A stretch of 64,000 nucleotides of DNA from Thermodesulfovibrio sp. (GCA_026982355.1 JALSHG010000046.1:5314-69313), one strand, 5' to 3'. Counted from the first letter of the stretch, positions 53,685 to 61,455 are shown. Notes: generated by a model from the letters alone, not told the origin. Made by a program: numbers and translations.

Positions 53685-53711
53685 TTATCAGATCAGTGCC
53701 CATCTTCCGGT

Positions 53712-53812
53712 TGTATAAACCTTACAGTTGCATAAAAGCATCGCCCTGCGGGCAGGAGAATGTGCGGCAGGTTTTACGCCGGGCTCTCCTGCCGGCTTAT
53801 GCAACATCAAGT
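53712..53812 (-). repeat. MITE/REP-like element, short form, inverted orientation (copy m) between secY and map
   Basis: ACCTTACAGttGCATAAAAgCAtCGCCctgcgGGCAGGAGAaTgtgcggcaggttttacgCCGGgCTCTCCTGCCGGCTTATGCAACATcAAG; occupies the slot where adk normally lies. Confidence 0.85.
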
Positions 53813-53816
53813 TTAA

Positions 53817-55124
53817 TCAGTGTCTCCTGCCCCGGATCCTGCCTTTTTTCAGAAATCCATCATACGAGCGCGTCACCAGGTGGGACTCCATCTGCGAAAT
53901 CGTATCCAGCGCAACACCTACAATTATAAGTATGGACGTGCCTCCGAAATAAAAAGGCACCTTGAAATATTTTATAAAAAATTCCGGAAGTACGCATACC
54001 AGGGACAGGTACACCGCGCCCCCGAAAGTGATCCTCGCAAGGACGCGGTATATGTAATCAGATGTCTTCTGTCCCGGCCTCACACCCGGAATAAACCCTC
54101 CGTATTTTTTCAGGTTGTCCGCAATATCCACGGGGTTGAAGATAATCGAGGTATAAAAGTAGCAGAAGAAGAATATCATGCTCACGTAAAGCACCGTGTA
54201 AAACGTTGTGCCCGGCGTAAGCTGCCTTGAGAGCGACTGCACCCACGGGACCGAGATAAAGCCTGCTATTGTTGCGGGAAACATTATTATGGATGACGCG
54301 AATATCGGCGGGATAACGCCCGCGGTGTTCACCTTAAGCGGCAGATGGGTGCTCTGGCCGCCGTATACCTTTCTTCCGACCACGCGCTTGGCGTACTGTA
54401 TGGGGATCTTCCTCTGCCCCCGCTCCACATAGACGATGACGGCTATGACCGCTATCATGATGACCACCACGAAGAGGAGCAGCAGGATATGCATCTCCCC
54501 CGCCCTCAGGAGGGATACGGAGCCGATGACCGCATTCGGAAACCTCGCCACTATGCCGGCGAAAATTATAAGGGAAATGCCGTTGCCGATCCCACGCTCG
54601 GTGATCTGTTCGCCGAGCCACATTATGAATGCGGTGCCCGAGGTCATGGTAATCATGGTCATGAGCCTGAACGGCCAGCCCGGGTTCTGGACGAATGCAC
54701 CCTGGTTCATGCTTTCGATTCCGACGGCTATGCCGATTGACTGGACGATGCTTATCAGCACGGTGCCGTAACGTGTATACTGCGTGATCTTTTTTCTGCC
54801 GGCTTCGCCCTCTTTTGCGAGCTTGCCGAGCGCGGGAATAACGACCGTCAGCAGTTGCAGGATGATGGATGCGCTTATGTAAGGCATTATGCCCAGCGCA
54901 AAGATCGTGGCCCTTGACAGCGCGCCGCCCGAGAACATGTCGAAGAACCCCATGAGCGCCCCGCCCCTCTCCATGAGAAACTTGCTCAGTTCCTCTCCGT
55001 TGATCCCGGGGGTGGGGATATGGGCGCCTACCCTGTAAACCGCCAGGAGGGCAAGGGTGAAGATTATCCTGCTCTTAAGCTCTGCTATGCGAAAAACATT
55101 CTGGAAGCTGTTGATGATGCCCAC
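53817..55124 (-). CDS. secY: preprotein translocase subunit SecY
   Basis: 435 aa, 10 TM segments, conserved SecY plug/hinge sequences. Confidence 0.97.
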   Translation of the reverse strand: MGIINSFQNVFRIAELKSRIIFTLALLAVYRVGAHIPTPGINGEELSKFLMERGGALMGFFDMFSGGALSRATIFALGIMPYISASIILQLLTVVIPALGKLAKEGEAGRKKITQYTRYGTVLISIVQSIGIAVGIESMNQGAFVQNPGWPFRLMTMITMTSGTAFIMWLGEQITERGIGNGISLIIFAGIVARFPNAVIGSVSLLRAGEMHILLLLFVVVIMIAVIAVIVYVERGQRKIPIQYAKRVVGRKVYGGQSTHLPLKVNTAGVIPPIFASSIIMFPATIAGFISVPWVQSLSRQLTPGTTFYTVLYVSMIFFFCYFYTSIIFNPVDIADNLKKYGGFIPGVRPGQKTSDYIYRVLARITFGGAVYLSLVCVLPEFFIKYFKVPFYFGGTSILIIVGVALDTISQMESHLVTRSYDGFLKKGRIRGRRH

Positions 55125-55174
55125 GATAAGAAAATCTCAGATATTTTAAGAGTTAAACAAAATCTTCCTGAATT

Positions 55175-55208
55175 TTGAATCTTGAATCTTGAATCTTGAA
55201 TCTTGAAT
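55175..55208. repeat. heptanucleotide tandem repeat (CTTGAAT)x4 plus a partial unit
   Basis: ttgaatCTTGAATCTTGAATCTTGAATCTTGAAT read directly, in the 85-bp rplO-secY spacer. Confidence 0.9.
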
Positions 55209-55209
55209 T

Positions 55210-55647
55210 TCAAATAATCTCCGCGCTTCCCTGTGCCCGCGTTATTTTTTCTTTTGCAGAGGCGCTGAAGGCATGGGCCCTGACCGTGACCGGCCGCGAG
55301 ATGTCCCCGTTGCCGAGTATCTTTATCCCGTCCCGGAGTTTCCTGACGACTCCTTCCTTCAGAAGATACTCCGGTGTGATCTCGGTCTCACCGAGCTTGT
55401 CAAGTGTGCCGACATTTACAATCGCGTATTCTTTCCTGAAAATGTTTGTGAAACCCCTCTTGGGAAGCCTGCGCTGCAACGGCATCTGCCCGCCTTCAAA
55501 ACCGGGTTTGACGCCGCCGCCGCTTCTTGAATTCTGTCCCTTGTGCCCCCTGCATGATGTCTTGCCGTGGCCGGAGCCGGGACCCCTGCCCACTCTCTTC
55601 CTCTTTTTCCTGCTTCCGGGAGCCGGTGCAAGTTCGGATAGTTTCAT
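55210..55647 (-). CDS. rplO: 50S ribosomal protein L15
   Basis: 145 aa [31 protein letters not shown]... Confidence 0.96.
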
Positions 55648-55845
55648 TTATTCCTCCACTGCCTCGCTGACTTCGACCAGATGAGCGGTCTTCTGTATCA
55701 TCCCGCGTATGGAAGGCGTATCCTTATGAATAACGCTCCGGTTGATTTTCCTCAGTCCCAGGGAACGAATGATCCTCCTGTGTTTTTCCGGCCTGCCGAT
55801 GAGGCTTCGCTTTAATGTCACTTTAAGTGTTTTCATCGGAATCAC
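55648..55845 (-). CDS. rpmD: 50S ribosomal protein L30
   Basis: (MIP)[30 protein letters not shown]...; the true start is probably M4 (55836). Confidence 0.92.
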
Positions 55846-59661: not shown

Positions 59662-59880
59662 TCAGCGCGCTTCGGCCGTTTTCTTTTCAGCCTTCATTTT
59701 TTCATTGATAACCGTCAGTACCCGCGCAATATCCTTTCTGACGTGCCTGATTCTCATGGGATTTTCAATCTCACCCGTCACCTTCCGGAAATTCAGGTTG
59801 AAAAGCTCCTTTCTGAGATCCATCTCCTGCCGGCGCAGTTCTTCAATGGTCTTTGTCCTTAATTCGGAAGCCTTCATTTC
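59662..59880 (-). CDS. rpmC: 50S ribosomal protein L29
   Basis: Start at MKASELRTKTIEELRRQEMDLRKELFNLNFR (ATG 59880), overlapping the rplP stop; the longer N-terminal extension in the ORF track is rejected. Confidence 0.9.
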   Translation of the reverse strand, partial: EMKASELRTKTIEELRRQEMDLRKELFNLNFRKVTGEIENPMRIRHVRKDIARVLTVINEKMKAEKKTAEAR

Positions 59881-60289
59881 ATCCCATCCTCTTAACAAAT
59901 TTCGTCGCCACGGACAGTTTATGTGAAGCCAGCCTCAGGGCCTCCCTTGCAACGTCTTCATTGACCCCCGCCATCTCGTAAAGGAGCCGTCCCGGTTTTA
60001 CAACAGCCACCCATGATTCCGGGGAGCCCTTGCCCTTGCCCATCCTTGTTTCGGCAGGCTTCTTGGTCAGCGGCTTGTCGGGGAAAATTCTTATCCACAC
60101 CTTGCATCCCCTCTTCACGTGCCTTGTTATTGCAATCCTCGCCGCCTCAATCTGGCGGTTCGATACCCAGCCCGGCTCAGTGGCCTTAAGCCCGTATTCA
60201 CCGAACGAGACTTCAGAACCCCTGTAGGCCTTGCCTGTCATGCGGCCTTTCATCATTTTCCTGAATTTAACCTTCTTGGGCATTAACAT
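59879..60289 (-). CDS. rplP: 50S ribosomal protein L16
   Basis: 136 aa [36 protein letters not shown]... Confidence 0.96.
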
Positions 60290-60366
60290 AACAAATCTTC
60301 TCCTTAAACCGGGCGCCGGCCTCCCTCATATTTCCGCCGGCCGTCCCGTCATAAATGCCGATCCGC

Positions 60367-61029
60367 TTATGCGGTCTCGCCGCCGGCCGGCTGAACCGCC
60401 GGATGCTGGAGGATATCTCCCTTGTATATCCAGACCTTGACGCCGATCCTGCCGTAGGTGGTCTTGGCCTCCGCAAGTCCGTAGTCGATGTCCGACCTGA
60501 ATGTGTGCAGGGGAACCCTTCCCTCCCTGTACCATTCCGATCTTGCTATCTCCGCGCCTGCAAGCCGTCCCGAGCACGCCACCTTGATACCGAGGGCGCC
60601 GAAACGCAGGGCGGAGGCGACCGCCTTTTTCATGGCCCTCCTGAAGGCGATTCTCTTCTCCAGTTGAAGGGCTATGTTTTCCGCAACAAGGACCGCGTCC
60701 AGCTCCGGTTTCCTGATTTCCTTGATGTCTATCGACATCTCCTTGCCTGTTATTTTTTCAAGCTCTTTTTTCAGCTTCTCAACCTCGACTCCCTTTTTGC
60801 CGATGATTATGCCGGGGCGGGCAGTGTGTATGGTCGTCCTGATTTTCTTGCCGGTTCTCTCGATTTCAACTTTGGGCACACCTGCATGAAAGAGATTCGC
60901 CTTTACGTATCTCTGAACGGCCAGGTCTTCATAAAGCTGTTCCTTGTAATTCTTTTTGGCAAACCATTTGGAATCCCATGTTCTTGTGATTCCGAGCCTG
61001 ATGCCTATCGGATGTGTCTTCTGCCCCAA
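60367..61029 (-). CDS. rpsC: 30S ribosomal protein S3
   Basis: 220 aa [24 protein letters not shown]...; KH domain; C-terminal GGETA tail. Confidence 0.97.
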
Positions 61030-61050
61030 AATCTATCCTCCGTTTTCTGT

Positions 61051-61380
61051 TTATTCCTCTAAAATCAGGGTTATATGACTCGTTCTCTTCCTGATCATGT
61101 CCGCCCTGCCCATGGCGCGCGGCATCATCCTTTTCATTGTCGGTCCCTGGTCAATGAGAATCCTTGCCACCTTCATCGATTCGGGATCCGCGACTTTCTT
61201 CTGCTCTGCGTTCGCCATGGCGGACTTCAGGACCTTCGCCAGGAGCCTGCCGCCCTTATGCGGGAGAAAGCCGAGACTTATAATGGCATCGCCGGCCTTG
61301 CGGCCCTTGATCAGGTTCGCCACCCTTCTCACCTTCCTCGGCGCTATCCTTGCGTATCTCAATACTGCTTTTGATTCCAC
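61051..61380 (-). CDS. rplV: 50S ribosomal protein L22
   Basis: 109 aa MESKAVLRYARIAPRKVRRVANLIKGRKAGDAI... Confidence 0.96.
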   Translation of the reverse strand: MESKAVLRYARIAPRKVRRVANLIKGRKAGDAIISLGFLPHKGGRLLAKVLKSAMANAEQKKVADPESMKVARILIDQGPTMKRMMPRAMGRADMIRKRTSHITLILEE

Positions 61381-61419
61381 TGTTGATTACCTCGTATTAT
61401 CCCTGCGGTTGTCCTGAAA

Positions 61420-61450
61420 TATCTCATGCCGCGCTTATGCAGCATTAACG
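61420..61450 (-). repeat. MITE-like left-arm remnant (copy o) in the rpsS-rplV spacer
   Basis: CCGcGCTTATGCAgCATTAAcgg, whose reverse complement matches TTAATGtTGCATAAGCcCGG; the spacer is 75 bp instead of the usual ~15. Confidence 0.5.
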
Positions 61451-61455
61451 GTTGT

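Follow-up and report, generated by a model that had tools for sequence, protein, structure and literature searches.

The S10, spc and alpha operons of a Thermodesulfovibrio sp. carry copies of an abundant mobile repeat in the spacers between their genes. We analysed 64,000 nt of this genome (GCA_026982355.1, JALSHG010000046.1:5314-69313; hereafter the window, numbered from its first letter) and in particular four long spacers, rpsS-rplV, rpsC-rplP, rplN-rplX and secY-map, between positions 53,685 and 61,455. The insertions are probably copies of a non-coding MITE (miniature inverted-repeat transposable element) of high abundance, which reside in the spacers as passengers, and the absence of adk between secY and map is probably ancestral. 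The invasion is real at three of the four junctions, yet it is ordinary for the lineage. A preliminary description of this region had proposed mobile-repeat invasion of these junctions, with rpsC-rplP as a possible case; this held for rplN-rplX, secY-map and rpsS-rplV but not for rpsC-rplP, where no family member is detectable.

A MITE family in the ribosomal-protein operon

The ribosomal-protein cluster lies on the minus strand, and rpsS, rplV, rpsC, rplP, rplN, rplX, rplO, secY, map and infA are all full length as judged by NCBIfam equivalog models. With gene ends taken from these models, the rpsS-rplV spacer (61381-61455) measures 75 nt, between rpsS (61456..61734, TIGR01050, E 1.3e-45) and rplV (61051..61380, TIGR01044, E 2e-38). 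The rpsC-rplP spacer (60290-60366) measures 77 nt, between rpsC (60367..61029, TIGR01009, E 3.5e-91) and rplP (59879..60289, TIGR01164, E 1.1e-60), and the rplN-rplX spacer (58820-59010) measures 191 nt, between rplN (59011..59379, TIGR01067, E 3.6e-57) and rplX (58502..58819, TIGR01079, E 7.9e-38). The secY-map spacer (53685-53816) measures 132 nt and separates secY (53817..55124, TIGR00967, E 1.3e-128) from map, which encodes a type I methionyl aminopeptidase (52938..53684, TIGR00500, E 4.7e-100, residues 2-247 of 248). These lengths are exactly those of the preliminary description. Its statement that the insertions are inter-cistronic and truncate no gene also stands: the flanking genes are intact, and just one of 150 copies of the family falls within a gene call. 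Gene calls on metagenome loci were made with a simple codon-usage caller, which reproduces the ribosomal operon correctly.

We defined the family from the window and 33 metagenome loci found by a pattern scan of public metagenomes, 32 of which come from one Joint Genome Institute (JGI) metagenome (Ga0256839); no overlap of these loci with the window was found. In the resulting 406 kb we counted the 150 copies, a density of about one per 3-5 kb of sampled sequence. Repeat finding over the window gave two conserved modules, a 5' module (…AACCTTAATGTTGCATAAGCCGGCAGGAGAGTCCGGCGTAAAACC…) and a 3' module (…GGACTCTCCTGCCCGCAGGCGGTGTTTTTATGCAACTGTAAGGT…). Both ends are present in 90 copies, whose lengths lie mainly at 92-101 and 212-224 nt, with some shorter, internally deleted examples. 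There are thus two forms, of ~97 nt and ~221 nt, the long form having an extra segment of ~125 nt in the loop. The ends are 16-nt terminal inverted repeats (5' CCTTAATGTTGCATAA, 3' TTATGCAACTGTAAGG), and the arms pair into a single long hairpin; in its outer helix CCTTAATGTTGCATAA pairs with the 3' sequence TTATGC(A/C)(A/G)CTG(T/C)AAGG, and 85.6% of the cells of this helix are paired across 53 copies.

Outside the terminal repeats, the four flanking bases are rich in A and T, being TTAA, TAAA or TTTA in most cases. The two sides carry the same 4-mer in 23 of 81 copies, compared to 6.3 expected (the maximum in 10,000 shuffles was 18), and among the non-palindromic 4-mers 19 are identical in direct and none in inverted orientation. 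These 4-mers represent a 4-bp direct target-site duplication. Because it combines terminal inverted repeats and a target duplication with small size, lack of coding content and high copy number, we classify the repeat as a MITE. In the short-form consensus, though only in the consensus, the frame from the ATG of TTAATG is open over the whole 97 nt (~29 codons).

At secY-map we found a full short-form copy (53716..53816, minus strand; ~97 nt plus flanking TTAA/TTTA), which begins 1 nt past the secY stop codon and fills most of the spacer. Its 5' and 3' modules were detected by nhmmer with E 3.6e-14 and 7e-14, respectively. A covariance model of the family scored it at 83.5 bits (E 1e-22) in the sense direction and 17 bits on the opposite strand, showing that the element is polar. 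The copy is predicted to fold with -42.2 kcal/mol (z -4.3) and is identical to that at secY-map in the contig L081.

The rplN-rplX spacer contains a decayed long-form copy (~58848..59010, minus strand) that starts immediately past the rplN stop codon. Its 5' module gave an nhmmer E of 2.9e-9, and it aligns lengthwise with the 221-nt long form represented in the window at 32189-32410 and 40225-40441. The 3' end is eroded, with the 3' terminal repeat cut down to ACCGTAAGGT. Thus the copies that had been proposed at secY-map and rplN-rplX are both borne out, one as a full element and the other as a decayed long form. The rplN-rplX spacer is 226 nt in contigs L081 and L082 compared to 191 nt in the window, in contigs that are otherwise 99.98-100% identical. 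The difference is a 35-nt indel within the copy (window ~58900-58915, which lacks the 35 nt; L081 5779-5809, and L082), and reflects either polymorphism in the population or a difference of assembly at the repeat.

The rpsS-rplV spacer holds the 5'-terminal fragment AACCGTTAATGCTGCATAAGCGCGGCA (61427..61453, minus strand), which begins 2 nt past the rpsS stop codon. It matches the 16-nt terminal-repeat core TTAATGTTGCATAAGC at 15 of 16 positions (a match with ≤2 mismatches is expected by chance 0.04 times per window) and matches the 5' ends of other copies with a blastn-short E of 8e-5; the covariance model by itself gave no significant score (E 9). The orthologous spacer of a close relative, L116, opens with TAACCTTAAT. 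In agreement with the preliminary description, this fragment is a genuine 5'-end remnant of the MITE.

The fourth spacer, rpsC-rplP (60290..60366, minus strand), is GC-rich and hairpin-forming (-27.6 kcal/mol, z -2.7) but is not a detectable member of the family. Searches with the profile hidden Markov models (HMMs) and the covariance model gave no match, the best blastn-short match to the family was 13 nt with E 0.33, and alignments of the spacer to the MITE consensus and to L116 were unconvincing. The sequence ccgcttatgcgg had been put forward as a possible further remnant here. We rejected this candidate: the TAA within ccgcttatgcgg / GCATAAGC is the rpsC stop codon. The expansion is also present in L116 (104 nt) and not in the relative L001 (14 nt). 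We therefore regard the rpsC-rplP spacer as an expansion that is not a detectable copy.

Age of the insertions and gene order in relatives

SecY comparisons place the window in the Nitrospirota (Thermodesulfovibrionales-like), and an assignment to the Bacteroidetes, which the gene order without adk had suggested, was dropped on these grounds. The organism is also present in SRR7968108 and ERZ27262642. We used its relatives to date the insertions. In the nearest species-level relative, L001 (SecY 87%), the spacers over the four junctions are 2, 14, 41 and 18 nt. In L119 and L120 (SecY 91-92%) the secY-map spacer is 58 nt and lacks the element, and no copy of the MITE was found in 80 related loci. 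In contrast, L118 (SecY 97%, GCA_013152795.1) has an internally deleted copy at secY-map (E 1e-6 and 6e-11). In L116 (SecY 98%, GCA_027049525.1) the secY-map spacer keeps no more than a remnant of the 3' module, rplN-rplX contains a long copy that is degenerate, and rpsS-rplV retains the TAACCTTAAT remnant. Since operon copies are found at SecY identities ≥97% and not at 87-92%, the insertions were probably acquired by a recent ancestor of this narrow clade, and because these copies are eroding by deletion they behave like unconstrained DNA. The metagenome-assembled genome of L118 (GCA_013152795.1, P0004) is labelled 'Deferribacteres bacterium' by NCBI; its SecY is 97% identical to that of the window and its neighbours are all Nitrospirota.

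The preliminary description had also drawn attention to adk, which it found missing from the position between secY and map and replaced there by the element. The gene is indeed absent from this position, and no adk-like P-loop gene was found in the window. However, adk lies between secY and map in none of 26 Nitrospirota-type operons, so the element cannot be said to occupy its slot. In 25 of the 26, map directly follows secY, with spacers of 10-96 nt outside the window organism; in the remaining one, L014, the automated map call failed. The map gene of the window starts with TTG, and a TTGATA start is kept in L002, L004, L116 and L118-L120. Many deltaproteobacterial loci, in contrast, have a secY-map gap of ~650-830 nt, the size of adk. 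Because secY and map were adjacent ancestrally in this lineage, the element has no bearing on the lack of adk, and the 'missing' gene is a template artefact, normal for this lineage.

The premise that junctions in these operons measure about 3-20 bp is likewise invalid in this lineage. Spacers of 50-270 nt are common, occurring at many junctions in many of the 26 related operons. Only the overlapping junctions rplC-rplD, rplD-rplW, rplP-rpmC, rpsQ-rplN, rpsM-rpsK and rpsK-rpsD are tight nearly everywhere, and these are presumably translationally coupled. The spacer sequences are not conserved between relatives. The long spacers of L004 contain GTCATTCCCGC…GGAATGAC palindromes, and those of L010, L006, L002, L003, L119 and L120 contain hairpins formed by inverted arrays of tandem heptamers. 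We conclude that repeat colonisation of uncoupled ribosomal-protein junctions recurs in this order and is not peculiar to the window genome.

Heptamer arrays at many ribosomal-protein junctions of the relatives, L004 among them, include AAAATNC/GNATTTT, AATAACC/GGTTATT and AGCTNAT, and resemble the STRR repeats of cyanobacteria. In the window itself, the rplO-secY spacer (55125-55209, minus strand) has a tandem heptamer array, (ATTCAAG)x5-6, at 55166-55214.

RNA structure

Short copies of the element are predicted to fold at about -42 kcal/mol (z about -4), and over 53 copies ~86% of the stem cells pair. Such a hairpin needs no special cause, because any element with long terminal inverted repeats forms one. 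We tested for covariation in the 53 copies with a structure specified by hand, as RNAalifold on a MAFFT alignment missed the main hairpin owing to gaps in the loop. The covariation score was not above that of shuffles (0.109 compared to 0.107), and the observed value was reached in 135-158 of 500 shuffles. G:U and A:C mismatches were equally frequent (89 and 82), which indicates no strand-specific pairing, and the minimum free energies of the sense and antisense strands were alike (-42.2 and -43.0 kcal/mol). Overall, the sequences give no sign of selection on the RNA structure of the element.

We also considered transcription signals. An intrinsic terminator was rejected, as the U-run lies ~11 nt past the main stem and a consensus scan gave a total of 21 matches compared to 17.5 in shuffles; the only terminator-like matches in the elements were two weak, overlapping ones with 5-bp stems, inside the secY-map copy. 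A promoter was likewise rejected, since the consensus scan found no sigma-70-like site within the elements. Rfam gave no match at gathering score over the window, and over 53500-61600 only a chance-level hit to IMES-1 (E 0.34, 21 bits compared to a threshold of 81). The proposal that the insertions are tolerated as structured RNA, or that they add processing or attenuation points, thus remains speculation: the covariation test, the comparison of G:U with A:C, the strand folding and the terminator scan were all blank.

Orientation and insertion sites

The orientation of the copies is strongly biased. Where the flanking genes are co-directional, sense copies outnumber antisense ones by 79 to 7, and among full copies by 55 to 2 (p about 1e-14 to 1e-16). 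At distances of more than 20 nt from a stop codon the bias is still seen (42 compared to 5), and most of the surviving antisense copies are fragments (Fisher p 0.04). Orientation tracks the local gene strand, both within single loci of ≤15 kb and within the window, and replication strand was ruled out as its cause because orientation flips inside single loci. An asymmetric target was also rejected: by hand count, duplicated TAAA and TTTA occur ~8 and ~4 times, and the bias persists far from stop codons. In L116, a copy past rplQ (15185-15271) is antisense to the operon, at a contig end; the window sequence there is unrelated.

Nothing but the sense bias hints at a constraint on the transcript level, and it is read most economically as the result of purifying selection that acts against antisense copies within transcripts. 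Speculatively, the unpaired C-rich segment of the antisense RNA, AAAAACACCGCCCGC, could admit Rho or RNase. A function of the sense strand, or an insertion mechanism coupled to transcription, could also be the cause. Taken together, the near-exclusive sense orientation of full copies tentatively suggests that the family acts at the transcript level, a proposal we hold to be unlikely and which takes in three variants: a domesticated polar RNA module, even in the S10/spc/alpha operon; harmful antisense RNA that has been purged; or a DDE-type insertion that reads the direction of transcription. A domesticated module might serve to stabilise mRNA, to supply a processing site or to couple stop and start codons as a hairpin, and intercistronic hairpins may be a lineage-wide way of organising ribosomal operon mRNA in the Thermodesulfovibrionales.

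Many copies are placed at stop codons. Among the 84 sense copies located behind a co-directional gene, the 5' end falls at -10 to +3 nt of the stop codon in 27, and the distances peak at -3, where the TAA stop codon is itself the duplicated target. These positions would be explained by the resemblance of the target to TAA, as such 4-mers are presumably scarce elsewhere in DNA of ~50% GC. At the other end, the 3' TAAGG of the element has the next start codon within 9 nt in at least 16 copies, most clearly at secY-map of L118, CTGTAAGGATAATTG. The terminal repeat can thus act as a Shine-Dalgarno sequence, although such a ribosome-binding-site role would come with either orientation.

These observations bear on the idea that the element is a functional sense-strand RNA module, such as an mRNA-protecting 3' hairpin, an RNase site, a weak attenuator or a stop-start device, and that its operon copies tune downstream expression. 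The sense bias that follows local transcription even away from stop codons, the fragmentary state of the antisense survivors, the very stable hairpins and the start codons placed near TAAGG are all consistent with such a module, and orientation-dependent effects on mRNA have precedents in ERIC, Correia and SMAG elements (PMC3184786). However, covariation does not exceed that of shuffles, G:U pairs are no more frequent than A:C and both strands fold equally. Furthermore, the operon copies are polymorphic and decaying by deletion, L116 loses half of the element without replacement, and relatives at 87-92% manage without the element at these junctions. Purging of harmful antisense copies would equally yield a sense bias. 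On this evidence we regard a functional module in the operon as unlikely.

Other copies in the window

Profile HMMs of both modules found 13 copies or fragments across the 64-kb window. In addition to the operon copies, full short-form copies lie between convergent genes (11532..11628, plus strand; covariance model 88.2 bits, E 3.6e-24) and between divergent genes (28802..28898, minus strand; 102.3 bits, E 1.8e-28), and a third, a subfamily variant, is intercistronic and sense (44620..44713, minus strand; 57.8 bits, E 7.7e-15). Two full long-form copies are present. One is 222 nt long with a TAAA/TAAA target duplication (32189..32410, plus strand; nhmmer E 1e-14 and 6.8e-17), and the other is sense, between a response-regulator gene and the next gene (40225..40441, minus strand; nhmmer E 1.4e-13 and 1.3e-6); the latter shows a 192-nt, 77% inverted match to 32193-32384. 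A 3'-end fragment (32170-32191, plus strand) abuts the full long copy at 32189-32410, and their junction can form a hairpin.

The remaining copies, all on the plus strand, are incomplete. A truncated or decayed copy lies at 16130..16203 (nhmmer E 1.5e-8; covariance model E 1e-5), and a long-form fragment lacking the 5' part, comprising the internal segment and the 3' module, at 17261..17344 (3' module nhmmer E 1.2e-14; repeat family D12). The 5' module alone is found at 25437..25485 (nhmmer E 4.4e-11), between a PEP-CTERM protein gene and a gene of 1065 aa and antisense to the two of them; no other copy in the window has this orientation to both neighbours. The 5' module alone is also found at 33484..33526 (nhmmer E 1.3e-9), where it is intercistronic and sense and overlaps the upstream stop codon. 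Finally, a 5'-terminal fragment at 35045..35073 (nhmmer E 1.1e-4; core 15/16) lies directly past a stop codon, upstream of an HU-family gene (Pfam).

Orphan 5' and 3' ends 0.5-4 kb apart were searched for a parent insertion sequence. Three gene sets lie between such ends: a restriction-modification pair, the genes of an outer-membrane protein and a GDSL lipase, and a gene like ThiI. Because the density of the MITE is high, this search is uninformative. In the window, orphan modules at 16130-17344 bracket the ThiI/NFACT-R PP-loop gene, and in L090 (6301-9083) they bracket a Dam-like methylase and a putative restriction enzyme. The orphan modules around ordinary genes may be composite arrangements or coincidence.

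Apart from the family, we noticed a near-consensus sigma-70-like promoter, TTGACT-17-TATAAT (11/12), at 52924-52952 on the minus strand, inside map at its 3' end and a little upstream of infA.

Discussion

We propose that a transposase encoded elsewhere would move the element by a cut-and-paste or copy-and-paste route, and that it would target AT-rich TTAA, TAAA or TTTA sites to give the 4-bp duplication. The operon copies would be passengers, present only in spacers that lack translational coupling and bringing neither a promoter nor a terminator of consensus type, and their hairpins would be read through by the operon transcript. Insertion would have occurred in the recent ancestor of the clade with SecY identities ≥97%, followed by erosion through deletions. 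IS1380/piggyBac-type transposons have ends beginning with CC, make 4-5-bp duplications and use AT-rich, TTAA-like targets. The CC ends, 4-bp duplication and TTAA-like target of the MITE recall these transposons, which makes them a lead to a possible source of the transposase; no transposase gene with these ends was found.

Several points weigh against this explanation. Pure neutrality does not fit the orientation bias: a transcript-level force, whether selection or insertion bias, acts on the family. An autonomous parent element with the same terminal repeats was not found in the window or the 33 loci. We obtained no clean pair of filled and empty sites at nucleotide resolution, as the relatives are either all occupied or have spacers that cannot be aligned. 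The codon-usage caller that made the gene calls in the metagenome loci was checked on the ribosomal operon only.

Beyond the sense-strand module discussed above, we considered whether the copies could be REP/BIME-type palindromes, spread by a RAYT (an IS200/IS605-like Y1 enzyme) via single-stranded DNA, with orientation set by the replication strand. Like these, the element is extragenic, palindromic, abundant and hairpin-forming, and it occurs in partial tandem copies (32170-32410). However, its units are 97 or 221 nt rather than 20-40, it has terminal inverted repeats and a 4-bp direct duplication, which Y1 elements do not make, its orientation flips with gene strand inside loci of ≤15 kb, and its consensus has no GTAG or CGTC head motif (motif per PMC3733652). 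Such an origin is very improbable.

It is scarcely credible that the long junctions reflect ordinary lineage spacing, or conserved leader or autoregulatory RNAs of ribosomal proteins, given that, for all the 50-270 nt spacers common among related genomes and the lack of a detectable repeat at rpsC-rplP, three spacers hold a genome-wide recurring sequence (E 1e-9 to 1e-22), the nearest species-level relative has 2-41 nt there, and the spacers are not conserved between relatives and match nothing in Rfam. The preliminary description had named equally long, repeat-free spacers in relatives as a sign of lineage-typical spacing; they were not seen at three junctions. There this reading is refuted, and it is possible only for rpsC-rplP.

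The MITE family described here is new and very abundant and comes from an uncultivated Nitrospirota lineage; the present analysis defines its terminal repeats, target, sizes and age. The family demonstrates that the ribosomal-protein cluster, though essential, is open to repeat invasion in this lineage, in contrast to Pseudomonas fluorescens, in which 'repeat deserts' surround essential genes (PMC3184786). The 79:7 orientation bias provides a clean natural dataset for separating selection on RNA from insertion mechanism as the source of MITE orientation. For annotation, MITE copies explain contig breaks and indels at these sites, and gene-order 'gaps' such as that of adk should be treated with caution when judged by an Escherichia coli or Bacillus template.

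ERIC elements (also IRU) of the Enterobacteriaceae, especially Yersinia, are palindromic MITEs of ~100-130 nt with long terminal inverted repeats that are transcribed, intergenic and often located at stop codons, that form RNA hairpins, and whose size variants arise by internal insertions or deletions (PMC3184786, PMC1590033). The window element similarly is an imperfect palindrome with terminal repeats, stop-codon sites, hairpin RNA and size variants. However, it duplicates 4 bp (TTAA/TAAA-like) where ERIC duplicates TA, it belongs to another host phylum, and its orientation bias is more extreme and spans all co-directional spacers. De Gregorio et al. (2005, J Bacteriol 187:7945) reportedly found that ERIC copies by stop codons favour one orientation and that orientation affects the stability of the upstream mRNA. 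The likeness to ERIC is functional and architectural only; ERIC is defined by a 127-bp consensus and a TA duplication, and the 4-bp duplication sets the family apart.

REP sequences, at 20-40 nt, have neither terminal repeats nor target duplications and rely on RAYT (PMC3733652). Like REP/BIME, the window element forms extragenic palindromes in operons, and the transcript would likewise read through them, but it differs in its 97- or 221-nt units, terminal repeats and 4-bp duplication. Correia (NEMIS) elements of Neisseria are abundant MITEs of ~100-160 bp that are co-transcribed with their neighbours and form RNA hairpins cleavable by RNase (PMC3184786, PMC10969869). A TA duplication, promoter and IHF sites and near symmetry mark the Correia elements, whereas the window element is polar and has no promoter-like consensus.

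Chunjie of Geobacter uraniireducens, as summarised in PMC10969869 (citing Chen et al. 2008), is a MITE of 178-235 bp with terminal inverted and direct repeats that is mostly intergenic, with one intra-operon copy that leaves operon structure intact. In both cases, then, a MITE with terminal inverted repeats has inserted in an operon without wrecking it. The two differ in sequence, host and target, and that summary does not describe Chunjie in ribosomal-protein operons or with an orientation bias. ERIC, Chunjie and Correia are all intergenic MITE hairpins transcribed together with their neighbours, and some of them influence the stability of mRNA (PMC3184786, PMC10969869, PMC1590033). The family of the window, which apparently shares no sequence with these elements and has a different target duplication, is a previously undescribed MITE that comes closest to these three in its behaviour.

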